DNA of 64,000 bases, from assembly GCA_963677595.1 (NCBI GenBank), contig OY782041.1:4096001-4160000 (forward strand), read 5' to 3'. Source of the stretch: Spirochaetia bacterium (GTDB taxonomy: Bacteria; Spirochaetota; Spirochaetia; CAKZLE01). The position numbers and the translations under genes were made by a program. The notes beneath the pieces are model-generated. The model was given only the letters and a program-made list of their open reading frames with translations, ran no database searches and had not been told where the DNA came from. Shown piece by piece: positions 40,286 to 62,336 of this stretch (position 1 is the stretch's first letter; each line of letters opens with the position of its first letter).

Positions 40286-40337
40286 CGTAGATCCCTCCTT
40301 CAATGTTTCATGTATGCATCAGCGAGACAGGGTTTTG

Positions 40338-42194: not shown

Positions 42195-42229
42195 GTGATA
42201 TGTGACTCCATGCAATAGGTCGAGCCGAT

Positions 42230-43597: not shown

Positions 43598-45079
43598 CTA
43601 TTTCGCGGTGTTGACCCATACCGATCGCAGTTCCGTCACCGCCTCGATCGCGGCCGTCCCGTTATCCCGTCCGTATCCGCTCTCCTTGAACCCGCCGAAC
43701 GGCACGTTCGCCGAGAACATATCATAGGTGTTCACCCAGACGGCTCCGGCCTCAAGCGCAGAGGAGACTCTCATCGCCTTCCCCACGTTTTCAGTCCATA
43801 CCGCAGCGGCCAGCCCGTATCTGGTGTCATTGGCCCGCTCGATCACTTCCTCTTCGGTCTTGAAGGAATAGATGCATACCACCGGCCCGAAGATCTCCTC
43901 TTTCGAGATCACCGCATCATCCGGTACATCCGTGAACACGGTCGGCTCGATATAGTACCCGCCAGACGGCAGGTCCCCGCCGCTCATGGCGTTGCCGCCT
44001 GTTACCAGCGTTCCCTCGTCTTTCCCCGTCTCGATATACTCCATCACTGTCTTGTACTGGTGCTTATCGATGATCGGTCCCAGCACGGTTCCCTCATCCA
44101 TCGCGATCCCCGTCTTGGCTTCCTCGATCTTCTTCAGCAGTCCAGAGAGCACCTGCTCATAGATCCCTTCCTGGACATACAGACGGCTCCCGGCCACGCA
44201 GCTCTGCCCGGTATTCCCGAAAGCTGCCAGAAACGCTCCGTTGACCGCTTTCTCGATATCGGCATCGTTGAAGACGATGTTCGGCGCCTTGCTCCCCAGT
44301 TCGAGGGTCACCCGTTTCAGGTCCTCTGCCCCCGCCTTGATGATCGCCTTCCCTACCGGCGTTGATCCCGTGATCTGTACTTTCCGGATTCCCGGATGAT
44401 GTGCGATCGCGTTCCCGATCACACTTCCCCTTCCCGTCACGATGTTCAACACTCCTGCCGGCATCCCAGCCTCGCAAGCCAGTTCCCCCAGCCTGAGGAT
44501 ACATAATGACGCCACTGATGCCGGCTTGATGATCACGCAGTTCCCTGCTGCCAGCGCAGGGCCCGCCTTCTGAGAGAAGTGGATCAACGGGTAGTTCCAC
44601 GGCAGGATGATACCTATCGTACCAAGCGGGTGCCGCGTCGAATAGACGAACAGGTTCGGGATAGAAACAGGGATCGTTTCTCCGTTGATCCTGCTCGGGA
44701 TCCCTGAGGCATGCATCATATTCCGCGATGATACCGGTGCGTCGATCTTCATCGTATGGTTGATCGGTTTCCCCGTCTCCAGCGATTCGAGCTGCGCCAG
44801 CTCATCCTGATGTACTTCGATCAGCTGCGCAAACTTCCGAAGAACACTCTCACGGTACCCCGGTGCCGCTTTTGACCAACCCGGGAAAGCTGCTGCTGCA
44901 GCTGCTACAGCCGCATCGACATCAGACGCATCTGACGATGCGGTCAGCCCCAACCGGCTCCCGTCCGAGGCATTCCTCGCTGCCGCCTGTCCCCCGCTTA
45001 TCGCCGGGACGAAGGCCCCGCCTATCAGGTTCCCTTTCGCTTCACGTAAGAAACCCTCTACCTGTTCCAACATCTCCAT
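43598..45079 (-). CDS. NAD(P)-dependent aldehyde dehydrogenase
   Basis: PWNYP, TGST.VG, LELG.K, GQSCVAG, EEIFGPV, PFGGFKESG. Confidence 0.95.
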   Translation of the reverse strand: MEMLEQVEGFLREAKGNLIGGAFVPAISGGQAAARNASDGSRLGLTASSDASDVDAAVAAAAAAFPGWSKAAPGYRESVLRKFAQLIEVHQDELAQLESLETGKPINHTMKIDAPVSSRNMMHASGIPSRINGETIPVSIPNLFVYSTRHPLGTIGIILPWNYPLIHFSQKAGPALAAGNCVIIKPASVASLCILRLGELACEAGMPAGVLNIVTGRGSVIGNAIAHHPGIRKVQITGSTPVGKAIIKAGAEDLKRVTLELGSKAPNIVFNDADIEKAVNGAFLAAFGNTGQSCVAGSRLYVQEGIYEQVLSGLLKKIEEAKTGIAMDEGTVLGPIIDKHQYKTVMEYIETGKDEGTLVTGGNAMSGGDLPSGGYYIEPTVFTDVPDDAVISKEEIFGPVVCIYSFKTEEEVIERANDTRYGLAAAVWTENVGKAMRVSSALEAGAVWVNTYDMFSANVPFGGFKESGYGRDNGTAAIEAVTELRSVWVNTAK

Positions 45080-45122
45080 CTTCTCCACCTCGTTATCTCT
45101 ATATCGTCTCTTCCGTATTCTG

Positions 45123-46463
45123 TTATGAGAAGTCCAGCGTACTCAAATCATAGGATGGGTACACCACTTTCTTCAAATCCTTCATATGGGCTTTCGATGT
45201 GGCATCGATCCCGGTCTTGTTCTGTACTCCCACTGAGTCGCTGCACGGATCGAGCTCATGCCCCTGCGAGTTCGGAATCACGAAGACATCCTCCCGCGGG
45301 TTCACCCGGTTGGTCACGGCCCACCAGACCTCTGCTGCGTTGTAGATATCTGTATCCTCATCTACCACGATCACGTTCTTGATGTTCACATGGCTCGTCA
45401 TCGCAGCCATCGCTACGTTCTTCGGTTCCCCGTCATTGGACTTCCGCATCTGCACGATCGCCAGGAACCCTGACCCGTACGGAGGGATATGGACATCCAG
45501 CACATTCGCGGACACGTAGGTGCAGTGTTTTTCCAGCAGTGGTTCCCTCGGCAGCACGTTCCCCAGGTTGATATGCTCGAACGAGCCCCCGTTCATCGTC
45601 TGCCAGATCGCCCCATCGCGTCGGCAGATCGCTTTCAACTTGAAGACAGGGCTCTCCCAGAGTTTACCGTAGTGTCCCGTGAACTCAGCGAGCGGGCCCT
45701 CTTTTTCCAGCGTATCGGGGAGGATCTCCCCTTCAAGCACAAACTCGGCATGTGCCGGCACCATGATATCGCTCGTCTGGCACTTCACCACCTTGATGGG
45801 CTGCTTCCTGATCGCTGAGGCGATCTCCATCTCATCCCCGTCATACCGGAAACCTGCCGCGATCAGGATCGCCGGGTCCACGCCGACCGCTACGGCGATC
45901 GGCAGTCCCTCACCCTTCGCCCAGGCCTTCTTCATCATCTCCCGCAGATGCCGCCACTCATTGATCATGATCCCCGAACGGTTTGCACTCTTGATGTGCA
46001 TCCGCTGGAAGGAGACGTTCTGGCGCCCGGTCTCGGGGTCCTTTGAGATACATGCCCCCGCGGTGATGAACGGACCCCCGTCAAGGGGTGCATGGGTCGG
46101 TATCGGCAACTCCAGCAGGGAAGCTTCAGTCCCTGTCAGGATGTTCGCATGGAATTCGGCTGTCGCCACTTCTTTCGGCTTCACCGGGTGCTCATAGGCT
46201 TCCATCAGCACCTTGGAGATCTCGTTCGTCTCACATCCAAGCGCCAGGGCGATCTTCTTATGGCTTGAGAGCAGGCCGCCAACCACTTCTCCGGGTCTCC
46301 CCTTCAGGTTCTTGAAATGGACTGCCGGCAGGCCGCCCTTCTCGACCGTTGCCAGAATACTTCCCAGCTCCTGCTCGAGGTCGACCGGGCTCTCCAGCAG
46401 GTTCAATTCCCCCTGCTTTCTGAGCAGCTCCATATATGTTCGTAAATCGCTTACCACAGGCAT
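45123..46463 (-). CDS. UbiD-family prFMN-dependent (de)carboxylase
   Basis: DGGPFIT, NVSFQR, AVAVGVDP, EFVLEG, EGPLAEFTGHY, VIVVDED.DI, GIDAT. Confidence 0.93.
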   Translation of the reverse strand: MPVVSDLRTYMELLRKQGELNLLESPVDLEQELGSILATVEKGGLPAVHFKNLKGRPGEVVGGLLSSHKKIALALGCETNEISKVLMEAYEHPVKPKEVATAEFHANILTGTEASLLELPIPTHAPLDGGPFITAGACISKDPETGRQNVSFQRMHIKSANRSGIMINEWRHLREMMKKAWAKGEGLPIAVAVGVDPAILIAAGFRYDGDEMEIASAIRKQPIKVVKCQTSDIMVPAHAEFVLEGEILPDTLEKEGPLAEFTGHYGKLWESPVFKLKAICRRDGAIWQTMNGGSFEHINLGNVLPREPLLEKHCTYVSANVLDVHIPPYGSGFLAIVQMRKSNDGEPKNVAMAAMTSHVNIKNVIVVDEDTDIYNAAEVWWAVTNRVNPREDVFVIPNSQGHELDPCSDSVGVQNKTGIDATSKAHMKDLKKVVYPSYDLSTLDFS

Positions 46464-46548
46464 CCCCTTATTCGTTATTCTTATCATGACCATTCTACCA
46501 AGCTGAATCAATAGATGCAAAAAGAATCAACCAGCATGCAATACCTGG

Positions 46549-46923
46549 TTAGAAATCAGAGGGTTCCCGTACGATGGAGACAGCAGAGTAATCGACCAGC
46601 CCTCCGATCGCCACTGACGGCTTCTTCACCGTGATCCGGATCTGTTTCACCGGGTATGCGGCATTGATCTCCTCAGCAATCCGGTATGCCAGACGCTGCA
46701 GCAGCTTATGCTCCTCGGTAGTCACGACTTTCTTCACGATGTTGAACACCGATACATAGCTGAATCCCTTCTCCAGGTCATCAGTCAGGCACATCTCGGT
46801 CATGTCGAGTACGACTTCCGCATCCACGATGAACTTCTGTCCCAGCGTGTTCTCCTCGGCGAAATGTCCATGAGTTGCCCACAGCTGGATGTTCTTCACG
46901 ATCAACACATCTTCTTTTACCAT
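46549..46923 (-). CDS. FolB (dihydroneopterin aldolase) T-fold homolog, Gln variant
   Basis: HG..AEE..LGQKF.VD, DDL...SY, LLQRLA, VKKP. Confidence 0.85.
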   Translation of the reverse strand: MVKEDVLIVKNIQLWATHGHFAEENTLGQKFIVDAEVVLDMTEMCLTDDLEKGFSYVSVFNIVKKVVTTEEHKLLQRLAYRIAEEINAAYPVKQIRITVKKPSVAIGGLVDYSAVSIVREPSDF

Positions 46924-46996
46924 TGTATTCACCTCTTATTCATAAAATCATTCACGGTCATCGTTGTCCTCTATGATAACCGCCTCCATCCTGCAC

Positions 46997-48862
46997 CTAA
47001 ACGAATAGCTTTTCGCCCTCCAGGGCAGCCTCTTTCGCTTCACGGTCGGCAGGGATGCCTCCATCCCAGCCCCGAAGCGCGTAATATTCCTCTTTCATCT
47101 CATCCAGAAAACTGAGGCAGGTCCTCGTCTCCCCGGTCTTGACGAGTCCCTTCAGCCGGTCCCCGTCGTATATATCGACGGTGATGGGTTCGGTCAGGAA
47201 CCGCTCAGGGAGCCTGTCCTCCTCCGGGGAGATACCTTCCCGGAGATTGAATAACCGCTCCATTTCGATGATGCCGTCACCAAGTGTCATTATCCCCTTT
47301 GCATCCATGGGCTCCTTGAAGATATGGCTCCAGGCTTCAGCCAAGTCGGACGGCATGATGGCATAACTCTCCGGACAGGCGAACTTGCAGATCCCCAAAG
47401 AGTCTGAAAGGGCATTGACCTCTTCCGAGATGATCTGCACGGCCCCCTTATGGGTAGGCGTGTGGGTTTCCAATGCGTCCGGCAGCAGTTCCGGGGCAAT
47501 AACCTCCATTGCCGCTACATTGTTCGCCACGTCAAGGGTCGGCAGGGCGTACAGCCCGTCACCGCCCCAGCTGGAGACCGCATTGTTCAGCCCGAAGGTC
47601 TGCGACTGCCTCGGTTCCTGGGCTGAGAGCTCCACCCCTTTCACCTGCATGGCATACGGCAGGCATTCAGGGTGTGCTTCACAGAACTTTCTTGTCCCGT
47701 TCCGAAGCATACCCCCGAGTCCCTTGTCCTCGATCATCTCTTCCCAGAGCCTGTCGATATCTTCAGGGTTCCCCCACTGAACTCTATAGTCCCTGGGAAG
47801 GATCCCCCGCTGTGAGCATTCCATGGCAAAGGCTACGATCCCACCGAAGCCAGACGGGTCGACGCCGTCTTTCAGGCAGCGGTCATAGAGGTCAACCAGG
47901 TATGCCAGGTCTCCGTTGCCGATCCTCGCCCCCAGGGTCCAGATCGGTTCGAGTTCCAAGCCTTCGGTATCCACCCGCTCGGTCCGCGTCTTCCTGATAC
48001 AACCGATATCGCAGCTCTCACAGCTCTTCGTCCCCACCGTTATATCCTTGATCGCTTCCGCGTTGAAGTTCTCGATCATCTCGAAGGAGGGCTGCTGATA
48101 GTTCCTCGTCGGCCAGTCCCCACGCAGATTCTTACTGCTGATGAACAGGGCTTTCCCCACATCCCGCAGCCTCACCGATGTCTGGTGGGTAGCTACCTTT
48201 TCCCTGACGACTTCAGATAACGACAGCCATTCCTTTTCTTGAATCCATGAAGGAGTGTACTCGCCTGGTTCGGCTACGATCCCCTTGAGCCTCTTACTGC
48301 CCATTATGGTCCCGCAGCCACGCAAGGTCATCGAGTAACCATCCGCGATTGCCGCCGCAAGCCCCGTCATGGCTTCTCCTGCTCGCCCGATCGCAAGGCT
48401 TGAACTGCCTGTGTAGACTTCTGCCATCCGTGCGGCAAATACCTGCGTATCAGTTCCCTGATAGGCTTCCGCATTCTTGAACCGGACTTCCTTCCCTGCA
48501 AGGTGCAGATAGACTGGAGTCTCTGATCTCCCCTGGATGATCACCGCGGCATACCCGAGACTGTGCAATACGATACCAAACCGTCCCCACGCCAGGCTGC
48601 TCCGGATCCCCCCGGTCAGGGAGGATTTCTCCGTGACATGCCACTGTACCGCTGAGGGCCAGCCGCTGCCCGCTAGCAGCCCTGTGGTGATGATCATCGG
48701 TGATGATCCTGCAAGGGGATCCTCGCCTGCGGTGGTATATTCATACAGCAGCCGGGCCCCGAGACCGCGACCGCCGAGATACTGCTTCAGTACTTTCTCC
48801 TCAAGTGTCCTCGTCCTGAAAGTTTGTGTGTGCAGGTCTATTTCCAGGCAACGGTTATTCAA
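46997..48862 (-). CDS. Aldehyde:ferredoxin oxidoreductase family (second paralog)
   Basis: YLGGRGLG, IG.AGE, MGSKRLK, CESCDIGC, DSLGICKF, YYALRGWD; TTG start at 48862 overlapping the upstream stop, RBS GGGAGG. Confidence 0.88.
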   Translation of the reverse strand: MNNRCLEIDLHTQTFRTRTLEEKVLKQYLGGRGLGARLLYEYTTAGEDPLAGSSPMIITTGLLAGSGWPSAVQWHVTEKSSLTGGIRSSLAWGRFGIVLHSLGYAAVIIQGRSETPVYLHLAGKEVRFKNAEAYQGTDTQVFAARMAEVYTGSSSLAIGRAGEAMTGLAAAIADGYSMTLRGCGTIMGSKRLKGIVAEPGEYTPSWIQEKEWLSLSEVVREKVATHQTSVRLRDVGKALFISSKNLRGDWPTRNYQQPSFEMIENFNAEAIKDITVGTKSCESCDIGCIRKTRTERVDTEGLELEPIWTLGARIGNGDLAYLVDLYDRCLKDGVDPSGFGGIVAFAMECSQRGILPRDYRVQWGNPEDIDRLWEEMIEDKGLGGMLRNGTRKFCEAHPECLPYAMQVKGVELSAQEPRQSQTFGLNNAVSSWGGDGLYALPTLDVANNVAAMEVIAPELLPDALETHTPTHKGAVQIISEEVNALSDSLGICKFACPESYAIMPSDLAEAWSHIFKEPMDAKGIMTLGDGIIEMERLFNLREGISPEEDRLPERFLTEPITVDIYDGDRLKGLVKTGETRTCLSFLDEMKEEYYALRGWDGGIPADREAKEAALEGEKLFV

Positions 48863-49496
48863 GGGAGCTCCCTCCCTGGGACCGTCCATGCTCAAGGAGT
48901 ATAGCTGCCTTTCCCAGGCACCTGCCGATGTCCTGCATGCTGGTGATGCCGACCTCGTCCTCCCGGGCACCTTTCAGTCCCCGGTTCTGGGTCCACATCT
49001 TACCGCCGGTGTAGTTGAAGTTCGCGCTCGACCCGCCGACCACGAAGATATTCCTCGCCAGGCACAGGTTGATCATGCAGTTGATCGTCAACTCCTGGCC
49101 TCCTGCCCTGCTGCCGCCGACGGCCAGGGCAGATGCAGGCTTACCGAACAATCCGGGCACCTTCTCTCGCATGGCCCGCATCTTATTGAACAGGAGCAGC
49201 ATCGAAGGGGTCGGGTTATAGGAATAGACCGGGGATGCCAGAATGTAGCCATCCGCATCGAAGAACTTCGTCAGCATCGCTGCGGTATCGTCTTCATGAA
49301 TACACTTCCCGGGGTTCCTGAGACAGTAGTTGCACCCGTTGCAGGGCTTGATGTCATAGTCCCTCAGTTTCATCACATCGGTCACGATATCTTCATGGAC
49401 CTCCGCTGCAGCTTCTAGGGACAGGCCTAGCGCATAGTCAGTGACCCCCTTGGTATAGCTTGAGGAGATCCCTAGGATCTTGATCTTCTTACTCAT
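48855..49496 (-). CDS. Iron-sulfur flavoprotein / flavodoxin-like FMN reductase
   Basis: CNGCNYC...C, ASPVY, GGSRAGGQE. Confidence 0.88.
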   Translation of the reverse strand: MSKKIKILGISSSYTKGVTDYALGLSLEAAAEVHEDIVTDVMKLRDYDIKPCNGCNYCLRNPGKCIHEDDTAAMLTKFFDADGYILASPVYSYNPTPSMLLLFNKMRAMREKVPGLFGKPASALAVGGSRAGGQELTINCMINLCLARNIFVVGGSSANFNYTGGKMWTQNRGLKGAREDEVGITSMQDIGRCLGKAAILLEHGRSQGGSSLE

Positions 49497-49540
49497 TGTG
49501 CACCTCGCATTTATCTTGGAGATTGTTCTCAGGATTCGAA

Positions 49541-50131
49541 TCAGGTAGAGAACCCGTCTCTCAGGATCTCTTCGGCTTCATCGAGCCAGGACTCCCTCTG
49601 GGCCTGGCTGCTCATGAACACCCGGCAGAAATCTTTCTTTATGACCTTCCGGGCACCACAGTTCCCGAACACCACGGTATCCCAGAACCGACCGATGGGA
49701 TCTCCCAGCTCCGCCAATTCCTCCTCGGGACAGTCAGAGGTATTGAATACTGTAACCAATCTGGTACGCAGCAGTGGGACGAATCTCCCGTCCTCACCCC
49801 GTTTCCCGATGAACTTGAAGGCAACACCGGCACGTATGATACGGTCTACCCACCCTTTCAGCACAGCTGGAGGCTGGTGCCTCCAGTTGGGATGCACGAT
49901 GACGACGCCATCTGCGCGTTTGAGCTCATCGCAATGTTCCTTCATCTGTCCGACCGGTACATAGCTGTCTTCCAACTCCTCCATTGAGAGGAGCGGGTCG
50001 AAGCCCTCAGCATACAGGTCATGATAGAAGACTTCGTGACCCAAGCTCTCAAGTACGGATACTGCCCGCCCGGCTATCCCATGGTTCAGGCTCCCCTGTT
50101 TGGGATGCCCGACCAATACCATAATATTCAC
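49541..50131 (-). CDS. NAD(P)H dehydrogenase (quinone), flavodoxin-2 fold
   Basis: GHP...SLN, DLYAEGFDP, HPNW..PPAVLKGWVDR. Confidence 0.88.
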   Translation of the reverse strand: MNIMVLVGHPKQGSLNHGIAGRAVSVLESLGHEVFYHDLYAEGFDPLLSMEELEDSYVPVGQMKEHCDELKRADGVVIVHPNWRHQPPAVLKGWVDRIIRAGVAFKFIGKRGEDGRFVPLLRTRLVTVFNTSDCPEEELAELGDPIGRFWDTVVFGNCGARKVIKKDFCRVFMSSQAQRESWLDEAEEILRDGFST

Positions 50132-50204
50132 AACACGTTCCTTATAGCTTTCCAGGTGCCAAGTGATCAAAACACATCCTGTACGCAATCAGCCCTGAAG
50201 TATG

Positions 50205-50237
50205 AACAGCGGAAACTGCCAAGGCGTTTCCGCTGTT
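50205..50237 (-). terminator. Stem-loop after the sugar ABC operon
   Basis: AACAGCGGAAAC-N9-GTTTCCGCTGTT. Confidence 0.65.
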
Positions 50238-50391
50238 AGTATGTTCATGAACCGTTACTCAGCCAGTACCTTCTGCCTGGGAGACAGTCAGGTTGACACC
50301 CCTAAGCGGTCAGCACTTCCTACAGATACCGGTGATAACGGCAGTCAAGGTCTGTTCCTTCATCGATCGTTCTCTCAATACCTGCAATGGA

Positions 50392-51294
50392 TCAGGATTT
50401 GATCGCCCCGGCCATCACACCGTTCACGAATGCCTTCTGGGCCGTGAGAAACACAATCAGCGGCGGCAGCATCAGCAGTACCGCACCGGCAGCCTGTACC
50501 GTGATATACTCGCCATACCCGCCGGCAGAGTTTGCCAGGACAGCAGTCAGCGGCCTGATTGAAGAATCAGGGATGATGATCAAGGCTCGCAGGAGATCAT
50601 TCCAGACCCACAGGAAATCGAAGATAGCAAGGGATGCGATTGCAGGTCCTGAAAGCGGCAGTACGATGTTGAAGAGCATATGCCTCGTCTTGGCTCCGTC
50701 TATTTTGGCAGCATTCAGCAGCTCCCTGGGGATCTGTATCATGAAACTGCCCAGGAGGAAGACTCCGAACGGGACTGTCGATGCGATATAACTCATCCAT
50801 ACACCGGGATAGGTATTGACCAGATGGGTCATCTTCAGGATTACCAGCGTCGGGTACAGGGTAATCTCTGGCGGTATGATGATAAGGCCTGTAACGAAGG
50901 CGAACAGCATCAGGCGGCCAGGGAAATCTGTCAGGGTGAACACATATGCAGCTGATGCACAGACCAGTACAACCCCCAAGGTCGTTGGGAAGGTGATCAG
51001 CACACTGTTGATCAGTCCCGTTGAGAGGTTCTGCATCCCCAGCATGGCCTTATAGTTCGACAGGTCGAATTTCGGGTTTATGAACACAGTCCACCATCCG
51101 GATCCTGTCGCATCGGTGAACGGCCTGAACGAGTTTATCACTAGCCCGATGAGGGGGATGAGCCATACCAGCACGACGAAGAGGACTACGATCCTGATGA
51201 TAAGCACAGACGGCTTCAGTGCCGGTCTCTTCACGGGATACACCTGCGCGGTCCCCGCGGTCATATTACTATTTTGGAGAGTTCTCTGATTCAT
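50392..51294 (-). CDS. Carbohydrate ABC permease (MalG-like)
   Basis: IPRELLNAAKIDGA EAA loop, FLWVWNDLL. Confidence 0.93.
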   Translation of the reverse strand: MNQRTLQNSNMTAGTAQVYPVKRPALKPSVLIIRIVVLFVVLVWLIPLIGLVINSFRPFTDATGSGWWTVFINPKFDLSNYKAMLGMQNLSTGLINSVLITFPTTLGVVLVCASAAYVFTLTDFPGRLMLFAFVTGLIIIPPEITLYPTLVILKMTHLVNTYPGVWMSYIASTVPFGVFLLGSFMIQIPRELLNAAKIDGAKTRHMLFNIVLPLSGPAIASLAIFDFLWVWNDLLRALIIIPDSSIRPLTAVLANSAGGYGEYITVQAAGAVLLMLPPLIVFLTAQKAFVNGVMAGAIKS

Positions 51295-52232
51295 TTTTCC
51301 TCCCCTATCTTTCTGGTTATACTGAACACGGTAACGATGATCAGACTCATGATAGTCACGATCGCTGCTCCGTATTGCGGTTTCATGAAACGGAACGTCT
51401 GCTCGAAAAACAGGAGCGCCATCGTCCGGCTCATGCCGGCAGGACCGCCCTCGGTCGTCACATAGACTACATCGAACACCTTCAATACTTGGACGAGCTG
51501 GGTCACGAGCAAGAATGATATCGGCTGCCTGATCGAAGGCACCGTTATATGCCAGAACCGCTGCCAGCTGGTAGTCCCGTCCACTTTTCCTGCATCAAGC
51601 AGGTCCTGGCTCACACCCTTCAGGGCTGCCGAGAGGATGATCACGGACATACCGCACTGGCTCCAGACCCACGCAGCGATCTGTGAGGGTATGACCAGTT
51701 CGGGGTCTCCCAGCCATGAGTAGGATCCATGCAGCACCGCATTGAGGAACCCGATCTTCGGGCTCGGTGCATACATGAACATCCAGATGATCCCGATGAC
51801 CGTTCCGGAGATGACCATGGGCAGGAAGAAGGTACTCCTGACCAGGGCCTGAAGCCTCCTGTTCCGTTTGTCTACGAACGACAGGTTCACATTATCTGCA
51901 ACGAGGGCAACGATCATCCCTATGATGATAACCGCCGGCACAGCCACGATTATCCACTTCAGACTGACAACAAGGGCACCGGTCGGGAATGATGCCGGGA
52001 AATCCTCAAGATTCAGGAATTTATTGTCAGAAAATAATTTGACGAAGTTCTCAAACCCGACATACCCTTTCAGCTTAAAACCTGTTGGTTCAGCGACACT
52101 CAACCTCAATGTATAGAGGACAGGTACCAGCTGAAAGGCTAACACTAAGATCAATGCCGGGGCGGCAAGAAGCAGCCCCGACAGGTTTGAACTACGTCTT
52201 TGTTTTCTTTTAAACAAGTAACGTAATTTCAC
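51291..52232 (-). CDS. Carbohydrate ABC permease (MalF-like)
   Basis: VGFENF, FFLPMVIS, LLDAGKVDG, LKVFD.V...T.GGP. Confidence 0.93.
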   Translation of the reverse strand: MKLRYLFKRKQRRSSNLSGLLLAAPALILVLAFQLVPVLYTLRLSVAEPTGFKLKGYVGFENFVKLFSDNKFLNLEDFPASFPTGALVVSLKWIIVAVPAVIIIGMIVALVADNVNLSFVDKRNRRLQALVRSTFFLPMVISGTVIGIIWMFMYAPSPKIGFLNAVLHGSYSWLGDPELVIPSQIAAWVWSQCGMSVIILSAALKGVSQDLLDAGKVDGTTSWQRFWHITVPSIRQPISFLLVTQLVQVLKVFDVVYVTTEGGPAGMSRTMALLFFEQTFRFMKPQYGAAIVTIMSLIIVTVFSITRKIGEEK

Positions 52233-52235
52233 TAT

Positions 52236-53510
52236 CTACATATCTCCATAGTTCTTCTGGAATTCAGCAAGAGAAGCTTCGATACCAGCAGGATTAAGGA
52301 TCGCTGACTGGATCACTTCCATCAGAGCCCCTCTCTTCTCGTTTGCAAGCATAGCCCCGTTTGAAGGTGCGATCTGTGCTGTAGGTGATGAAAGGTACTC
52401 AGCTGATCGTGCGGTAAGACCTGTGTAGAGTGAAGGGCTTACATTGTAGTTAGCTACAGTATACCCTGATGGTGCGAATAATGCCTGACCTTCAGCGCTG
52501 ATCAGGTATTCCATCAGCTGGGTTGCCTCAGAACTGTCTGAGAACTGTACTGCGACATCCGCTGCAGCGATGACAGCACCCTTTCCTGCGTCTGATCCTG
52601 GAGGGAATACGATGAAGTCGATAGTCTCGCCTTCAACGAGATTCTCATTGATAGCACTCTTAGCAATACCTGCTACCCAGCCGCCGCCGATAACGAACTT
52701 TGCATCTGCATCGGTACCGAAGACTCGGGAGATACCGCCTACAAGATCTGTACCCATAGCGCCTTCTCCGCCGCCTGCAACATAGGACCCACCGTAGTAA
52801 TCAGCGATCTTCTCGAATGCTGCCACGACCTTCGGGTCAGTCCAGGGAGTCTGATTCGTCATGAGCTTAACCCACTCGTCAACTCCGTAAGAACCGAGGA
52901 ACATATCCTCAATGAGACCGGTAAGGGTCCAGGATGTCTTCGCGATACTTGCAACAGGTTTCTCCCCTGCAGCTACCAGTTTATCAGCATAATCGGTGAA
53001 GTCATCATACATCCAGGTACTTGGGTCCCCGTCGATCTTAGAGGGATCGAACCAGAACAGGTTCGAGACACTTGCACGTGTCGGGATAGCCATGATCTCA
53101 CCATCGAAGGTGAACTGGTCTAACCAGCCCTGGCTGAAACTGGACTCGATCTCGCTCTTCATACTGTTCAAGCTGACAATAGCATCCTGAGCTACGAGTT
53201 CCTTGAGTCCATTAGCAACCGGAAGGATCGCCAGGTCAGGAGTCTCATCGGCTGCAAGCCTGGGTCCAAGGACCTTGATCACATCCTCAGCCGCCTCGTA
53301 TCGAACTTCGATACCGGTCTTCTCTGTGAATCCATCAAGCACTACCTGGAACGCTTCCTGTTCAGAAGCACTCCACGGCCCCATGATATCCAACACGACA
53401 GGTTCTGAACTTGCTTCCTTCTGACCGGCTGCAAAAACCATTGAACCAGACAATACCAACATGAAAACTGCAAACAACACACTGCATACATTCTTTCTCA
53501 GCACTTTCAT
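52236..53510 (-). CDS. Carbohydrate ABC solute-binding protein (alpha-glucoside/AglE-like)
   Basis: Signal ...VFAAGQKE, GPWS..EQ.AF...L..F..KTGI.V.YE, PDLAILP. Confidence 0.88.
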   Translation of the reverse strand: MKVLRKNVCSVLFAVFMLVLSGSMVFAAGQKEASSEPVVLDIMGPWSASEQEAFQVVLDGFTEKTGIEVRYEAAEDVIKVLGPRLAADETPDLAILPVANGLKELVAQDAIVSLNSMKSEIESSFSQGWLDQFTFDGEIMAIPTRASVSNLFWFDPSKIDGDPSTWMYDDFTDYADKLVAAGEKPVASIAKTSWTLTGLIEDMFLGSYGVDEWVKLMTNQTPWTDPKVVAAFEKIADYYGGSYVAGGGEGAMGTDLVGGISRVFGTDADAKFVIGGGWVAGIAKSAINENLVEGETIDFIVFPPGSDAGKGAVIAAADVAVQFSDSSEATQLMEYLISAEGQALFAPSGYTVANYNVSPSLYTGLTARSAEYLSSPTAQIAPSNGAMLANEKRGALMEVIQSAILNPAGIEASLAEFQKNYGDM

Positions 53511-53626
53511 CTCTAGCCTCCCATTCTTATTGCGCAAGGTCTTGCCGTACTCGGCGAATCCCCTGCTTTGATTAACATGTATTTAACAACCTGTATCTCG
53601 AATGTGCACCTACTCGATACGGGTAA

Positions 53627-54646
53627 TTAACAGATTTTTGTAGAGTCCCTCACGACCAGCTTCGTTTCCAAAACCGTATGGAACGGGCCGGAAGCAGGGT
53701 CATCTATCAATTGGAGCAGCTGCGTGACGGCAGCTTCCGCGATCTCTTCTATAGGCTGATGGATCGTCGTCAACTGTGGGACGACCATCGTCGCATAGTA
53801 GATGTCATCGAAGCCTATGATCGAGACATCCTCGGGGACCCGCTTCCCTGACTGCCACACAGCACTGATCGCACCCATGGCAGTCTCATCAGTCTGGCAG
53901 AATATAGCCGTCATGTCCTTATTCACTGCCAGGAGATGCTTTGCTCCTTCATAGCCTCCATTGAACGATGCTCCACCAGTTTGCCCGCAAAGGTAAATCA
54001 GGTCCTCCTGGTTAGTCATCCCATTGGCAGACATAACATCCTCATAAGCCTTGAATCGCCTTATCGAATAATTGTAATCAGACTGCAGCAGGATGCATCC
54101 TACAGATGTATGTCCAAGAGTTGTGAGATACTTGACGGCATTCTCAGTACTCTTATAGTCATCAATCGCTACATATGAGATCTCAGGCTCCAGTTCTACC
54201 TGTCCTGGGTGGATGATCATGAACGGTATGTTGTTCTCCTTCAGGTAGGAGATCAGTTCTTCATTGATACCGGCTATGGTATCAAGGAGCAGACCTTCAA
54301 TCTGCTTCCCGCCGTATGCAGCCTTGACCAGGTCGATGACATGTTCATCAAGCTTGAACAGGCTCAAACGGTAATTGATCGACTGGCAGGTCGCCAGCAG
54401 GGCTTCCATCAGCGTTGCATAGAAGGCTGTCTGTATTCCCCAACCCATGACAATACCGATCGAAAGGGCCCGGCCCCTGGAGAAGATGGTCGCTACCTGA
54501 TTCGGGACGAAGTTAAGCTCATCAATGACTTTCTGTACTTTTGTCTTCGTTGTCGTGGAGACATTCACTTCCCCATTGACGACACGTGAAACGGTCTTAA
54601 GTGATACTCCAGCCCTGCTGGCAACATCCCGCATAGTAACAGCCAA
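53627..54646 (-). CDS. LacI-family transcriptional regulator
   Basis: TMRDVA.RAGVSLKTVSRVVN, VPEDVSIIGFDD, LTTIHQP. Confidence 0.95.
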   Translation of the reverse strand: MAVTMRDVASRAGVSLKTVSRVVNGEVNVSTTTKTKVQKVIDELNFVPNQVATIFSRGRALSIGIVMGWGIQTAFYATLMEALLATCQSINYRLSLFKLDEHVIDLVKAAYGGKQIEGLLLDTIAGINEELISYLKENNIPFMIIHPGQVELEPEISYVAIDDYKSTENAVKYLTTLGHTSVGCILLQSDYNYSIRRFKAYEDVMSANGMTNQEDLIYLCGQTGGASFNGGYEGAKHLLAVNKDMTAIFCQTDETAMGAISAVWQSGKRVPEDVSIIGFDDIYYATMVVPQLTTIHQPIEEIAEAAVTQLLQLIDDPASGPFHTVLETKLVVRDSTKIC

Positions 54647-54666
54647 AACGCATCCTCCTCTCTGAC

Positions 54667-54726
54667 TGACACCGGTGTCAATCAGTCTGTAATCAGATGG
54701 TAAGTCATATTGACACCGGTGTCAAT
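54667..54726. promoter_or_regulatory. Two perfect LacI-type operators upstream of lacI
   Basis: TGACACCGGTGTCA (54667-54680) and ATTGACACCGGTGTCAAT (54709-54726). Confidence 0.8.
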
Positions 54727-54974
54727 GTTTTTTTTAATAACCCGATGAAATATATTATATTTCCCACATATATGTAGTTTTTATACGTTTCCCAGATAGT
54801 TATATTCTGCGTAAAAATGTGCTTAACTTCTTTTCAACACATAATTTATAAATACTTTCAAGAATCAAGCTGAAATGGAAGAAAAATCACTAAAAATATT
54901 ATCGCACCATAGCAGAACCTACTTAAATGTAGCTTTTGCATGAGAGTAATCAGGCAAATCGCGATACTCGGCAT

Positions 54975-56345
54975 CTAGGTTTTCGAGATTCCCATCTGCA
55001 TTCGATGCAATTCTTCAATTTTCCGGTAGTTCCTCAGCAGTGCGATCGTTGTGATCACGATCGCCAACCCATCCGCTGCAGGGACTGCAGCCCAGACACC
55101 GGTCAGGCCGAACTGGTAAGGCAGTACGGTCAGCAGCGGTACCAGACAGATGAACTGGCGAAGCATACTCAAGATGAGGGCCTTCTTGCCCTGGTCAGTG
55201 GCCTGGAAGAATGTGATCCCCAGGATGTTCAGACCCAGCAGGGGAAGCATGATGACATAGATCCTCAAGCCTCGTACTGCAACTCCCATGGTAGGTGATG
55301 ATGGGTTGATGAACATGCCCATGAAGAACTGCGGGAAGATCTGAAGGGCGAGGAAGATGAGCGTGGAGAAGCCTACAGCCCATAGGATCCCGAGCTTCAG
55401 GGTCCTGTTCACGCGGTCGTGCTTATCTGCCCCGAAGTTATACCCGATGATAGGCTGCATCCCCTGCTGCAGCCCCATCAGGGGAAGGAAGAAGAGGGTG
55501 AACAGGCCATTGATCGCCCCCATCGAGGTAATGGCTTCTGTCCCGCCGTAGATTGAGAGTCTCTGGTTCAGGAAGCCGAGGGCTATGCTGTTCCCCATGG
55601 TCCCGATGAAGGTCGCCATCCCGGTGATCATGATCTGCTTCACGATCACGGCATGGATGATGAAGTCGGAGATCGTGAGTTCGAGATGGCTCTTTCCCCG
55701 AAGATAGAAGGGTATCAGTATGAAGAATCCGGACATCTGGCCGATCGCCGTAGCTGCTGCCGCACCCATGACTCCCCATCCGAACACGATGATGAACAGC
55801 GCATCGAGAACAATGTTCACAACTGCAGAAGCCAGCATCGCCACCATCGGCAGGTGGGCGTTTCCCTCAGTCCGTATGGTATGGTTGAAGATGAAGGCGA
55901 TCATATTAAAGATGAACCCGCCAAGGATGATCTTCATGTAGATATTCGCCTGGCTCAGGATACTCTCATCGGCACCGAAGAGCTGCAGGATGTTGTCCAG
56001 CTGCCAGAAGAGTACGGCGACCAGAGCGATCACGATGATGATCCCGATGCTGATACCGTTGGCAAAATAGCGTCCGGCCTTCTTCACATCCTTCCTGCCG
56101 AACTGGATGGCCATGCAGGCAGACACACCGCCTGCGAGCAGCCCGCCGAGGGCGAAGAGGATCATCATCACGGGGAACGCTACCGTCAGGGCAGCAAGTG
56201 CGCCCTCCCCTACGAACCTCCCGATGAAGATCCTGTCCACCACGTTGTAGACTGCGTTCACCACCATGGCGAAGATCGAAGGGAATGAGAATGCCCAAAG
56301 GAGCTTACCGACCGGCTTCGTCCCCAGTTCTTCCTGTCTTTTCAT
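54975..56345 (-). CDS. MATE-family efflux transporter (MepA-like)
   Basis: YNVVDRIFIG, RTEGN, NIVLD.LFI, GAAAATAIGQ, QPIIGYNFGA. Confidence 0.93.
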   Translation of the reverse strand: MKRQEELGTKPVGKLLWAFSFPSIFAMVVNAVYNVVDRIFIGRFVGEGALAALTVAFPVMMILFALGGLLAGGVSACMAIQFGRKDVKKAGRYFANGISIGIIIVIALVAVLFWQLDNILQLFGADESILSQANIYMKIILGGFIFNMIAFIFNHTIRTEGNAHLPMVAMLASAVVNIVLDALFIIVFGWGVMGAAAATAIGQMSGFFILIPFYLRGKSHLELTISDFIIHAVIVKQIMITGMATFIGTMGNSIALGFLNQRLSIYGGTEAITSMGAINGLFTLFFLPLMGLQQGMQPIIGYNFGADKHDRVNRTLKLGILWAVGFSTLIFLALQIFPQFFMGMFINPSSPTMGVAVRGLRIYVIMLPLLGLNILGITFFQATDQGKKALILSMLRQFICLVPLLTVLPYQFGLTGVWAAVPAADGLAIVITTIALLRNYRKIEELHRMQMGISKT

Positions 56346-56496
56346 AATTAACACCTATCTCTTTATCTTATGAGGATTTCTAACTAGCTAAAGAAGCGGT
56401 GTGTCTGTAGGGTTCTTTTTTAACATTCAGCGGATCTCCCGTCTTGGAGGGAGAACGATCTGTCTCTGTTTGTAGATCACGTACAGATACAATCTG

Positions 56497-56527
56497 CTGT
56501 CCCTGCAGAATTTCACGGCAGGAACAG
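56497..56527 (-). terminator. Stem-loop after second folB cassette copy
   Basis: CTGTCCCTGC...GCAGGAACAG, a degenerate copy of the 57636-57667 hairpin. Confidence 0.5.
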
Positions 56528-56568
56528 TCATATATGTATCAGATTATGGAAGTTTAGCCAAGGCTAGA

Positions 56569-56582
56569 GTTGTATATACAAC
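56569..56582. promoter_or_regulatory. Putative GntR/HutC operator upstream of MATE
   Basis: Perfect palindrome GTTGTATATACAAC, same core as 15164-15175. Confidence 0.55.
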
Positions 56583-56587
56583 ATAAT

Positions 56588-56956
56588 TTATGCAGTCAGG
56601 GTGAACCCGACATACTCAACATTCGAACCTGGGATGGCAGGATACGGCTCCTTCACGGTGACGGTGACCTGCTCGATGGGGGTGCCAGAAGCACCCCTGA
56701 CCTCATCAGCGATACGCTGGGCGACCCTCTGGATGGTCTTGTAATGCTCTTGGGTGATCACCTGCTGCGTGATCTGAAAGAGGTCCGTATAGGTAAGGCC
56801 GCTGGAGAGCTGGTCTTCGGCGAACTGGTTGGACATATCGAGGACCACCTCGATATCGATGATGAACTTGGTCCCCATGACGTTCTGCTCATGGGTGAGC
56901 CCGTGGTTCCCCCAAAAGATCATGCCGTTAGATTTCAATATATCCAGGTCTCTCAT
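56588..56956 (-). CDS. FolB T-fold homolog, type B, copy 2
   Basis: FWGNHG, KF.ID, LTY, TIQRVA, VKEPYPAIPG. Confidence 0.8.
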   Translation of the reverse strand: MRDLDILKSNGMIFWGNHGLTHEQNVMGTKFIIDIEVVLDMSNQFAEDQLSSGLTYTDLFQITQQVITQEHYKTIQRVAQRIADEVRGASGTPIEQVTVTVKEPYPAIPGSNVEYVGFTLTA

Positions 56957-57384
56957 ATGCTCCCCTCTTCTCCACCAGGGAAGGTCCGTACCAGCGTCAC
57001 CCCGCAGCCCTCGTCATCGGGGAAGAAACCTCCCCCTCCGGGAACGGTACTGCAGTCACGATAGAATGAGCAGAGGGCCTTCCGTGCCGAGACACTGACC
57101 CTGCTTACGGCAGGGTACTCTTCCCTGATCTGCTCGATGATCCGCAATGCGAGCTTCTGCATGAGGTTGAACCGTTCCTTGGTCGTGATCCTCTCTATGA
57201 TCGCGAAGATCTCTGGATAATTCACGATCCCGTTGATGGAATCCTCATCGCAGGCTGCGCTCATGTCGGCGCTGACTTCGGCATCGATGACGAATCGCTG
57301 GCCTTGCTTGATCTGTTCCGGTGTCGCCCCGTGATAGGCATAGAACACCGCTCCCTGTACCAGTATGGTATATTGTGAACTCAT
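56953..57384 (-). CDS. FolB T-fold homolog, type A, copy 2
   Basis: FYAYHG, GQRF.ID, VNY, FNLMQKLA, ARK plus Cys/Gly-rich insertion. Confidence 0.82.
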   Translation of the reverse strand: MSSQYTILVQGAVFYAYHGATPEQIKQGQRFVIDAEVSADMSAACDEDSINGIVNYPEIFAIIERITTKERFNLMQKLALRIIEQIREEYPAVSRVSVSARKALCSFYRDCSTVPGGGGFFPDDEGCGVTLVRTFPGGEEGSI

Positions 57385-57413
57385 AGTCCCTCCAATCCTG
57401 TCGGATACCGGTG

Positions 57414-57608
57414 CTAATCCGGAAACTTGTCCGAAGCCAGGGATCCCCCGATCGCCCAGTCTGATTTCTTATAGTCACTGAACGAGATGATGACGCTCTC
57501 CCTAGGAACTTTCGCGATCTCCACCACGCTTTCAGTGATCTCGTTGGTGAGCTCCCGTTTCTGTTCCACGGTCCGGCCTTCCCATAACATGACATTGATG
57601 AACGGCAT
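57414..57608 (-). CDS. 4-oxalocrotonate tautomerase family protein, copy 2
   Basis: N-terminal Pro, EGRTVEQKREL, WAIGG. Confidence 0.9.
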   Translation of the reverse strand: MPFINVMLWEGRTVEQKRELTNEITESVVEIAKVPRESVIISFSDYKKSDWAIGGSLASDKFPD

Positions 57609-57635
57609 ATGTGACTTCTCCTTCGTAACGTATAT

Positions 57636-57667
57636 CTGTCCCTGCAGCCTCGTATCTGCAGGGACAG
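57636..57667 (-). terminator. Stem-loop between duplicated cassettes
   Basis: CTGTCCCTGCAG-N8-CTGCAGGGACAG. Confidence 0.65.
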
Positions 57668-57681
57668 GGTAAGTCAGTACA

Positions 57682-58059
57682 TTATGTGGTCAGGGTGAAC
57701 CCGATAAACTCCACATTCGAGCCAGGTATAGCAGGATACGGTTCCTTCACAGTGACAGTGACCTGCTCTATGGGTGTGCTGGAAGCACCCCTGACCTCAT
57801 CAGAGATACGCTGGGCAACCTTCTGGATGGTCTTGTAGTGCTCCTGGGTGATCACCTGCTGCGTGATCTGGAAGAGGTCCGTATACGTAAGACCACTGGA
57901 GAGCTTGTCTTCGGCGAACTGGTTGGACATATCGAGGACGACCTCGATATCAACGATGAATTTGGTTCCCATGACGTTCTGCTCATGGGTGAGTCCGTGG
58001 TTCCCCCAGAAGATCATGCCGTTCGATTTCAATATATCCATATCTTTCATGTGTTCCAT
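57682..58059 (-). CDS. FolB T-fold homolog, type B, copy 1
   Basis: About 10 substitutions in 122 aligned residues versus 56588-56956 (counted by eye). Confidence 0.8.
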   Translation of the reverse strand: MEHMKDMDILKSNGMIFWGNHGLTHEQNVMGTKFIVDIEVVLDMSNQFAEDKLSSGLTYTDLFQITQQVITQEHYKTIQKVAQRISDEVRGASSTPIEQVTVTVKEPYPAIPGSNVEFIGFTLTT

Positions 58060-58065
58060 CCTCCC

Positions 58066-58479
58066 CTAGTTCTCGAAATTCCGTAGTAATGTGACACCGC
58101 TTCCCCCGTCATCGGAGATGAAGCCGCCGCCGCCGGGAATAGTCTTGCAGTCCCGGTAATAGGGGCACAATGACTTCCTGGCCGAGATCTTGACACTGCT
58201 CACATCCGGGAACTCTGCCTTGACCTGCTCGATGATCCGCAATGCGAGTTTCTGCATGAGGTTGAACCGCTCATTGGTCGTGATCTTCTCGACGATGTCG
58301 TAGATTGCCGGGTAGTTCACCAGCCCCTCTACGGAATCTTCCTCACAGGCCTTACTCATGTCAGCACTGACTTCAGCGTCGATGATGAACCGCTGGCCCT
58401 GCTTGATCTGTTCCGGTGTCGCCCCATGGTAGGCATAGAACACCGCACCCTGCACTAATACTGTATGCTTCATACTCAT
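58066..58479 (-). CDS. FolB T-fold homolog, type A, copy 1
   Basis: FYAYHG, GQRFIID, VNYP, FNLMQKLA, ARKSLCPYYRDC..PGGGGF. Confidence 0.82.
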   Translation of the reverse strand: MSMKHTVLVQGAVFYAYHGATPEQIKQGQRFIIDAEVSADMSKACEEDSVEGLVNYPAIYDIVEKITTNERFNLMQKLALRIIEQVKAEFPDVSSVKISARKSLCPYYRDCKTIPGGGGFISDDGGSGVTLLRNFEN

Positions 58480-59125: not shown

Positions 59126-60460
59126 TTACTGCTTCAGGAACGCATCCAGATCCACTGCAGGATAGGTGACTCGCTTGTAATCATCCTTGATCTTGAGGTC
59201 GATGGTCGCATCGATCGCGAACTTCGTCTGCATCCCCTCCTCATCAGTTGTTGGATCGTTCTCCATGCCCTGGGCATAGGGGATGGTGATGATGTCCTTC
59301 TTCGCATCCACCCTGGTAGACATGGCCCAGAGGATGTCGCTCGGCATGTAGATGTTCACATCGGGATCGACGATAACGGCGATCTTGATGTTCACATGCG
59401 TCATGAGCGCTGCAAGGGCAACATTCTTCGGTTCCCCCGAATTGGTCTTGTTCAGGGCGATGACCGCCATGAAGCCGCCGGTATAGGGGGTAAGATGAAC
59501 GTCCGTTACATTGGGTGAGACGTGAGTGACCATCCGTTTCAGCATGGGTTCTCGAGAAAGCACGTTGCCGACATTCACATGTTCGTTGGATGCAGGGACG
59601 ATGGTCTGGTAGATCGGGTCATTCCGGTATGAGATGGAAGTCACCTCGATGACCGGCATATCTCTATGCTCGCCGTAGTGCCCGGTGAACTCAGCCAGGG
59701 GACCTTCGTCCTCCCACTCCTTCACCTTCACATAGCCTTCGACGAGGATCTCGGTATCGGCAGGCACATTGATACCGACAGAGCCGGCAGCGACTTTCAG
59801 GGGTGCCCCGTTCAGTGCCCCTGCCAACATGGCCTCATCCTCATCGATACGGAACCCTGTGGACATCTCGACAGCCGGGTCCACGCCGATAGCGATCGCT
59901 ATGGGCATATTCTCCCCTTTTGCCTCATATTTCCGGAAGAACTGGAAGATATGCCGCCATTCGTTCATCATGAGACCCAGTTTCCTCGGCCCTTTCACCT
60001 GCAGGCGGTTGAACGAGAAGTTCTGCCGGCCTGTCTCGGGGTCCTTGGAGACGATGATGCCCCCCGTGATATAGGGGCCGGCATCGCCGGGATTATGATA
60101 GGGGATGGGCAGCTGTTCCCGGAGGTTGATATCATCACCAGTGATGCGGTTCTCCAAAAACGGAGGGTTCTCAACAAGTTCCGGCTCGATCAGGTTCCCC
60201 AGGGCGGCATCCACCTTCTGGTTGATCTCCGGTTCTCTACAGTCGAGTGCCAATGCGATACGCTTCATCGTACCAAGGACACCCCCGATCACCGGGATCC
60301 CCGAGGGGTGGTCGGTATTGGTGAACAAGCCTGCAGGCCTGCTCTCCTTCTCCATGGCATCCTCGATCGCCGCGAACTCGAAGTCGAGCTTCACACGTTT
60401 ATCTATCTCGAGCAATTGCCCGTTCTGTCTCAGTTTCTCCAGGAATGATCTCAATTCCAT
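59126..60460 (-). CDS. UbiD-family prFMN-dependent (de)carboxylase (second paralog)
   Basis: DAGPYIT, NFSFNR, IGVDP, EGPLAEFTGHY, VIVDPDVNI, AIDAT. Confidence 0.93.
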   Translation of the reverse strand: MELRSFLEKLRQNGQLLEIDKRVKLDFEFAAIEDAMEKESRPAGLFTNTDHPSGIPVIGGVLGTMKRIALALDCREPEINQKVDAALGNLIEPELVENPPFLENRITGDDINLREQLPIPYHNPGDAGPYITGGIIVSKDPETGRQNFSFNRLQVKGPRKLGLMMNEWRHIFQFFRKYEAKGENMPIAIAIGVDPAVEMSTGFRIDEDEAMLAGALNGAPLKVAAGSVGINVPADTEILVEGYVKVKEWEDEGPLAEFTGHYGEHRDMPVIEVTSISYRNDPIYQTIVPASNEHVNVGNVLSREPMLKRMVTHVSPNVTDVHLTPYTGGFMAVIALNKTNSGEPKNVALAALMTHVNIKIAVIVDPDVNIYMPSDILWAMSTRVDAKKDIITIPYAQGMENDPTTDEEGMQTKFAIDATIDLKIKDDYKRVTYPAVDLDAFLKQ

Positions 60461-61326: not shown

Positions 61327-61399
61327 AGTTCTCTCCTCTTCAACACGTCGCCATGTGTTGTGATCCGTTGTCATCGTATGCTCTCATACGTAGATCGTA

Positions 61400-62236: not shown

Positions 62237-62336
62237 AAAGCGTATCACCTCATATGTTGGATTTCAGTAGTGGGGCCAGACCCGTCATGTGTCCAGCCCC
62301 ATGCTGGATGTTTATCATCTCACGTTCTCTGCGTCC

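Follow-up and report, generated by a model that had tools for sequence, protein, structure and literature searches.

Described relatives and the FolB genes of the window

In E. coli dihydroneopterin aldolase (DHNA, FolB), Glu73 bonds the N3-H and 2-NH2 groups of the pterin and is termed the most important binding residue, the backbone carbonyl of Leu51' accepts a further bond from the 2-NH2 group in 96% of the molecular dynamics frames, and the active site is shared between neighbours, Glu and Lys coming from one subunit and Tyr from the next (PMC4176595, available sections). In the comparison of DHNAs given in PMC9937910 (available part), this anchor glutamate shows strict conservation. Urate oxidase, a T-fold protein like DHNA (PMC2229834, in part), holds urate-like ligands through Arg176 and Gln228 (PMC2490695, in part). 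Here we describe five FolB homologues, F1 to F5, that carry glutamine at the anchor position and are encoded in a 64,000-nucleotide stretch (the window) of the genome of a Spirochaetia bacterium (assembly GCA_963677595.1, contig OY782041.1, positions 4,096,001 to 4,160,000). Gln228 of urate oxidase is a putative positional equivalent of Glu74, the anchor of S. aureus DHNA. Our analyses indicate that the five proteins belong to a rare clade that has, with high probability, a non-folate, catabolic role.

Two catabolic systems also invite comparison. The aerobic route of Cupriavidus LA-1 uses a pterin deaminase (PDA), a dehydrogenase of the xanthine oxidoreductase (XOR) family (LuDH), an Amidohydro_2 isomerase (DHLI) and a UbiD protein (XCDC), and the available text of the paper describing it contains no mention of an aldolase or of folB (PMC12391406). 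The 2,8-dioxopurine pathway comprises Xdh, YgfK, SsnA and HyuA and also YgeW, YgeY and YgeX (10.1101/2025.04.24.650524, in part).

The five open reading frames (ORFs) lie on the minus strand, encode proteins of 122 to 143 amino acids and each exceed the Pfam cut-off for PF02152, F1 and F3 exceeding also that of TIGR00525 (folB). F1 (46549..46932) is a single-domain protein. The other four, F5 (58066..58479), F4 (57682..58059), F3 (56953..57384) and F2 (56588..56956), arose by tandem duplication of a cassette with the order tautomerase - F5/F3 - F4/F2, whose copies share 77.6% DNA identity over 1080 bases (about 1.1 kb). F4 is a duplicate of F2 (92% identity) and F5 of F3 (73-74%), and each copy includes a gene of the 4-oxalocrotonate tautomerase family matching PF01361 (58546..58743 in copy 1 and 57414..57608 in copy 2, minus strand, the latter with Pro after Met). 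Five independent Gln events are rejected because of this duplication; the five genes are three types (F1, F5/F3 and F4/F2), not five independent cases.

The first-pass annotation of this DNA had claimed that Gln replaces the anchor Glu in all five proteins, and the alignment of F1 to F5 bears this out with an invariant Gln column (LLQR in F1, LMQK in F3 and F5, TIQR in F2 and TIQK in F4); its account of what the Glu does was likewise correct, agreeing with the E. coli contacts given above. In gapless alignments the Gln falls on Glu74 of S. aureus DHNA (1dhn), whether the F1 sequence, the F5-type profile or the F4-type profile is used. Its codon is CAG in all five genes (Gln79 of F1 at 46696-46698), and the same column in an alignment of F1 homologues holds Gln in 25 of 26 rows and Asn in the remaining one. 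Chance or sequencing error is rejected on account of the five CAG codons and the conserved clade. Contamination was also rejected as the source of the cluster, which has a GC content of 0.51-0.57, against 0.546 for the genome, and lies on its one contig; the genome (G000; G, L and P numbers below denote genomes, FolB loci and proteins) is 95.4% complete with 6.28% contamination.

Homologue searches with Gln-type queries, a choice that overstates the frequency of Gln, returned 281 FolB domains, of which 209 have Glu, 71 Gln and one Asn at the anchor. A tree was built from 112 domains left after removal of duplicates (43 of the 70 full-length Gln/Asn domains and 69 of the 209 Glu domains; 130 columns). 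In it, all 43 Gln/Asn domains and a single Glu protein, from locus L006, lie on one side of a long branch and 68 Glu domains on the other, with support of 98/97 and a bootstrap that was not fully settled. On this phylogeny there is a single clade of Gln-type domains, in which one Glu member is nested. The clade is rare among the genomes sampled: six others of 400 class-mates of G000 match FolB, three with Gln and three with Glu, and none of five genomes of its family has a FolB match. In Clostridia, the class of another carrier (G067), 15 other genomes among 399 scored match at E 1e-28 or better, all with Glu. A metagenome scan with the F5-type alignment, which serves as a control only, gave Glu in 80 of 80 FolB domains and no F5-type locus. 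We found no description of a Gln-type FolB clade in the literature searched, most subscription papers lying outside its reach. Proteins of the clade carry dihydroneopterin aldolase labels, which is likely a misannotation that inflates folate-pathway predictions.

Catalytic residues, pocket and subunit pairing

F1 keeps the equivalents of the catalytic residues Glu22, Tyr54 and Lys100, as do nearly all single-domain members of the clade (40, 40 and 39 of 41, respectively). Its AlphaFold model (pLDDT 89.4) finds S. aureus DHNA 1dhn as top structural match with a TMq of 0.80, and that of F5 (pLDDT 78.6) finds the same structure with 0.76; uricases appear in the F5 search at rank 38 and lower (TMq at most 0.62, E 5.5e-4). 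The proteins thus resemble FolB of S. aureus (1dhn) and E. coli (2o90) in fold, size and predicted ring assembly and, for F1, in the three catalytic residues, but they differ in the anchor Gln, in a mostly Gly residue at the Thr51 position, in their catabolic neighbours in place of a folP/folK context, and in paired subunits with complementary catalytic losses. With urate oxidase they share the T-fold family (PMC2229834, in part) and a Gln that, in that enzyme, holds a dioxo ligand (PMC2490695, in part), whereas urate oxidase is longer (about 300 residues against about 125), structurally distant and different in its chemistry.

A second position of the pocket changes together with the anchor. 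At the position of S. aureus Thr51, beside the carbonyl, Gly is found 49 times among 72 Gln/Asn domains, against Thr 167 times among 208 Glu domains. The 2-oxo group of a ligand would come to lie opposite the backbone carbonyl that binds the 2-NH2 group, a contact overlooked in the first-pass annotation, so Gln alone would be insufficient and a second change would be needed. The Thr51 to Gly co-variation fits such a change, short of proof. The same geometry also counts against a 2-oxo ligand, because the Leu51' carbonyl would face the 2-oxo group and a backbone shift must be assumed.

F2 to F5 have Gln at the Glu22 position, and F2 and F4 have Glu at the position of the catalytic Lys100, substitutions on which the first-pass annotation was silent. 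F3, which carries an insert after Lys100, keeps this Lys and is a predicted Lys/Gln-donor subunit; F2 keeps Tyr54 and is a predicted Tyr donor. The same division of residues runs through their homologues, with Lys100 present in 13 of 13 F3-type proteins and 0 of 6 F2-type proteins, and Tyr54 in 3 of 13 and 6 of 6. Two-domain fusions have Tyr54 in domain 1 (4/4) and lack it in domain 2 (0/4), and genes of the two types are paired in G000 (twice), G074 and G067. As the DHNA site is shared between adjacent subunits, an alternating ring would hold one complete site per pair, and the complementary loss of Lys100 and Tyr54 suggests a heteromer. A 2+2 model of F5 and F4 scored 0.81, against 0.00 for the best control, with contacts agreeing to at least 90% between runs and a partner pLDDT of at least 85; 116 of 157 solved complexes attain the mark set for this score, as do 2 of 215 mismatches. 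Resemblance to the solved rings of DHNA would lead one to expect this pass, and the model is no evidence of a preference for hetero- over homo-assembly. An obligate heteromer is further weakened by F3, F5 and P0025, which keep Tyr54, and by the fusions, whose domain 1 keeps Lys100 in all four cases; F3 and F5 might work alone.

Folate genes, gene neighbourhood and the linked decarboxylase

The earlier statement that these proteins are not folate-biosynthetic is well supported. Genome-wide searches of G000 gave no FolB other than the five Gln-type proteins, hence no canonical folB, and no match to HPPK (FolK), FolE, FolE2 or PTPS; the sole Pterin_bind match sits in a MetH-sized frame of 1210 amino acids, with no FolP match. 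In the fetched flanks of the loci compared, folP accompanies 41 of the 66 loci of Glu type and none of the 20 of Gln type. Among the 14 genomes of the clade, five have a separate Glu-type folB (in four cases adjoining or fused to HPPK), in six HPPK is without a match, and three lack a canonical folB but have folP-folK. The nested Glu member (L006, 9847-10227, in G061) is the sole FolB match of a genome that has FolE and folP-folK and no PTPS match; it is possibly a natural reversion to the folate role, seen in one incomplete metagenome-assembled genome (MAG).

The genes around the FolB homologues, on the minus strand from 37979 to 64000, are of a catabolic kind. F1 stands in the run AFOR2 - F1 - UbiD1 - ALDH - Fe-ADH - AFOR1 - GH3, where AFOR2 (46997..48970, aldehyde:ferredoxin oxidoreductase family) is directly upstream of F1 and UbiD1 (45123..46520), of the prenylated flavin mononucleotide (prFMN) decarboxylase family, immediately downstream. 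Among solved structures, the best relative of UbiD1 is 6h6v, presumably the furan-dicarboxylate decarboxylase HmfF. There follow an NAD(P) aldehyde dehydrogenase (ALDH, 43598..45088), an iron-containing alcohol dehydrogenase (Fe-ADH, 42463..43587), AFOR1 (40338..42215), of the same family as AFOR2, and, as last gene of this co-oriented run, a GH3 glycosidase of unproven role (37979..40303). An FMN_red flavoprotein and a flavodoxin-fold protein (48855..50188) lie upstream; taken at its longest, the AFOR2 ORF shares 116 bases with the FMN_red gene (48855-48970), and AFOR2 probably begins further downstream in reality. The region upstream of the cassettes holds UbiD2 (59126..60460), a second decarboxylase 45% identical to UbiD1, an NMT1/THI5-type ABC transporter with ATPase, permease and binding protein (60520..63368) and an FMN_red flavoprotein (63446..64000) that continues beyond the window end. 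Past this end (L098) come UbiX, an amidohydrolase, a xanthine dehydrogenase (XDH)-family subunit, a BMP ABC transporter and a CodA-like deaminase. The interval 50392..56354, which separates the two FolB groups, holds a sugar-type ABC transporter, a LacI regulator and a MATE exporter, whose role is unproven. Together with GH3, the sugar transporter and LacI (50392-54646) could free an aglycone from a pterin glycoside; no GH3 occurs in the 20 other Gln loci. An Rfam search found no riboswitch in the window.

A second block of N-heterocycle catabolism occupies positions 11971-37913, with three XDH-family Mo subunits, two SsnA-like amidohydrolases, a carbamoyltransferase, a BMP ABC transporter, two YgeY-like proteins and two DHODH/PreA-like proteins with ferredoxin domains. 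Together, this block, the FolB block and L098 span about 66 kb. XDH-, SsnA-, YgeW- and YgeY-like genes recall the 2,8-dioxopurine pathway, both here and beside co-occurring UbiDs, but neither FolB nor UbiD is named in the available part of its description (10.1101/2025.04.24.650524), and YgeY alone passes its NCBIfam cut-off in the window (383 bits against 321), SsnA (217 against 444) and YgeW (203 against 453) scoring below theirs. The likeness to the Cupriavidus LA-1 pathway lies in deaminase-family, XOR-family and UbiD/UbiX genes clustered with transporters and, in the route proposed below, in deamination as the first step; that pathway belongs, unlike this cluster, to aerobic soil Proteobacteria, acts on unsubstituted or hydroxylated rings and uses an Amidohydro_2 DHLI that is absent here (PMC12391406, in part). 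At family level, the cluster offers an XOR-type molybdenum dehydrogenase, in the form of MoCoBD subunits in L098 and the window, and nearby candidates for a pterin deaminase among CodA-like and AtzA/TRZ-like amidohydrolases.

Similar neighbours recur in other genomes. In the fetched flanks of the 20 Gln loci (seven of them added from the same genomes or from a later search) and the 66 Glu loci (one of which, L053, has no readable anchor), BMP transporters occur 11 times against 0, FMN_red 11 against 0, amidohydrolases 6 against 0 and proteins resembling methenyl-tetrahydromethanopterin cyclohydrolase (Mch-like) 6 against 0. Fe-ADH accompanies five and PreA-like proteins four of the Gln loci, and neither accompanies any Glu locus. 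The company of the Gln-type loci is one of nucleoside-type ABC transporters, deaminase-like amidohydrolases, Mo/W oxidoreductases and Mch-like proteins.

The association with UbiD extends beyond the window. Orthologues of UbiD1/UbiD2 (at least 54% identity) are found in 10 of the 14 clade genomes, from a comparison of 30 of 33 UbiD matches plus one more. Among 399 other genomes of Clostridia none has such an orthologue, the best identity being 36%, but this control class mismatches some of the 14 clade genomes and kin are not independent. UbiD lies inside the fetched flank in just 3 of 20 Gln loci, a point against the route proposed below. Eight further UbiD contexts include three with SsnA/XDH/YgeW/YgeY-like genes and two with a BMP gene and FMN_red, the rest being sparse. 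A comparison to XCDC through plasmid matches gave no orthology: the matches listed reach at most 39% identity, and none of the three contexts inspected is a lumazine cluster. Neither these UbiDs nor the deaminases of the cluster were linked to characterised enzymes of pteridine metabolism. Members of the linked UbiD subfamily are candidates for heteroaromatic decarboxylases.

A candidate route and competing readings

The simplest chemistry that would use the same retro-aldol residues on a different ring edge would be cleavage of a deaminated compound of the 7,8-dihydroneopterin type. We propose, as an evenly balanced possibility, that the Gln-anchored clade is a catabolic side-chain aldolase acting on deaminated (2,4-dioxo) dihydropteridines, that is, dihydrolumazines. 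The 2-oxo substrate of the first-pass annotation is plausible and has gained backing from gene context, while the substrate itself we infer. In the putative route, an amidohydrolase would deaminate imported pterins of the neopterin, monapterin or biopterin type; the Gln would read the N3-H/C2=O edge, and Lys100 and Tyr54 would make the usual retro-aldol cut, giving 6-hydroxymethyl-dihydrolumazine and a two-carbon aldehyde. F1 would do so as a homo-oligomer, and F5 with F4 and F3 with F2 as hetero-rings of alternating subunits, one supplying Lys/Gln and the other Tyr. Fe-ADH, ALDH and AFOR could then oxidise the hydroxymethyl group to a carboxylate, UbiD/UbiX could take it off by prFMN decarboxylation, and XDH-family enzymes, by Mo-dependent hydroxylation, together with a reductive purine-type module (SsnA/YgeW/YgeY-like) would dismantle the ring, for which the 2,8-dioxopurine-like genes in the left half of the window are a plausible sink. 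The enzyme families needed for deamination, side-chain cleavage, oxidation of the hydroxymethyl group, prFMN decarboxylation and Mo hydroxylation match families that are present, and the aerobic route of Cupriavidus LA-1 is a precedent.

The wider proposal is that anaerobic Firmicutes and spirochaetes ferment side-chain pterins by an undescribed pathway, its committed step being a FolB switched from pterin to lumazine by a single Glu to Gln swap, with one natural reversion, repeated splitting into complementary heteromeric subunits, a linked new UbiD subfamily and reductive purine-type ring breakdown. We advance it tentatively, at somewhat under an even chance. If true, it would provide small, expressible candidates for the anaerobic fate of neopterin- and biopterin-type compounds in sediments, digesters and guts; the route of pteridine degradation that the literature search turned up runs aerobically and does not deal with side chains. 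The clade also offers a natural test of T-fold specificity (Glu reading 2-amino and Gln reading 2-oxo), with a possible natural revertant for comparison.

Several observations weigh against this scheme. Five of the 20 Gln loci (L007, L014, L165, L166 and L292) have no core catabolic neighbour, and the anchor residue is Glu in one F2-type protein (L128). The neighbouring deaminases best match AtzA/8-oxoguanine-deaminase and cytosine-deaminase structures and match only weakly 2paj, which we take to be an isoxanthopterin-deaminase candidate. Amidohydro_2, the family of DHLI, has four matches in G000 and none in the cluster, and Mch has no match in this genome, so that neither provides the ring-processing step here. 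G062 and G073 have folP-folK and solely Gln-type FolB, neither with a FolE or FolE2 match. Most of the genomes compared are incomplete MAGs and not independent of each other. The route as a whole is a candidate, with substrate and activity inferred from sequence and context.

Other readings of the clade were weighed. It could act on an oxopurine of the xanthine or urate type bearing a hydroxyalkyl side chain, and feed xanthine-carboxylate-type decarboxylation and the reductive purine pathway. The BMP/PnrA-like transporters, the XDH-, SsnA-, YgeW- and YgeY-like neighbours and a purine riboswitch in L009 speak for it, as do solved DHNAs that, by their structure titles, bind guanine and 9-methylguanine, and a dioxo edge that is the same as in urate (PMC2490695, in part). 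We nevertheless find it unlikely, given the side-chain-handling residues kept in F1-type proteins. For its retro-aldol chemistry, DHNA requires an imine adjacent to the side chain to act as a sink, which a 7,8-dihydropteridine offers, and we know of no abundant natural C-hydroxyalkyl xanthine.

We hold it similarly improbable that the clade is still an aldolase or epimerase of 2-amino pterins with a weaker anchor, serving pterin catabolism or salvage. Gln would still be able to accept the N3-H bond and the backbone carbonyl contact to 2-NH2 may persist (PMC4176595, in part), F1 and F3 score above the TIGR00525 cut-off, and G062 and G073 combine folP-folK with Gln-type FolB alone. However, the Glu that is lost is the most important binding residue (PMC4176595, in part) and is present in all 80 control domains, five clade genomes have a separate Glu-type FolB, and Glu stands at the anchor of the clade member that is the sole FolB of a genome with FolE. 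Beside this reading stand the folP-folK pairs of L159 and L160 (G062 and G073), in genomes without FolE/FolE2, which suggest pterin salvage.

Compounds of the riboflavin pathway (ribityl-lumazine, or flavin or deazaflavin fragments) are already 2,4-dioxo and would make deamination unnecessary. The BMP and NMT1 families include riboflavin binders. Loci with a DeoC/DhnA aldolase (4/20) or an FGGY kinase (3/20) recall a riboflavin-induced neighbourhood of aldolase and dehydrogenase, in a paper whose available text has 0 occurrences of "dihydroneopterin" (PMC13492142). We judge this reading quite unlikely, as amidohydrolases are enriched beside the clade and the G000 cluster has no aldolase/kinase module. 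An N-linked ribityl chain also misfits the DHNA retro-aldol geometry. Finally, the proteins might be FolB paralogues that are decaying or have no catalytic function and serve to bind or channel an intermediate, as the missing Lys100 of F2/F4, the missing Tyr54 of many F3-type proteins and the degenerate L165 might suggest. This is very improbable, because the F1 type retains the complete catalytic set (39-40 of 41) and, in paired genes, the losses complement each other.

Some Gln loci carry further modules. A DeoC/DhnA aldolase, Zn-dehydrogenase and LacI module adjoins the Gln-type FolB in L009, L011, L016 and L167, joined by an FGGY kinase in the last two; processing of the side chain that is released may be its task. 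In L009, a locus of a cultured Moorella strain, the purine riboswitch (6135-6236) lies upstream of an NCS2 permease and adjoins the Gln-FolB operon. The Mch-like genes, all in Firmicutes, are those of L009 (7522-9340), L010 (12014-13768), L012, L015, L019 and L164; a full and a degenerate copy occur together in at least three loci, and they are candidates for a ring-opening or ring-contracting enzyme. Among the Glu-type proteins, P0046, P0048, P0051, P0054, P0086, P0119 and P0122 are two-domain FolBs of 282-296 amino acids with a Cys-rich, possibly metal-binding C-terminal tail.

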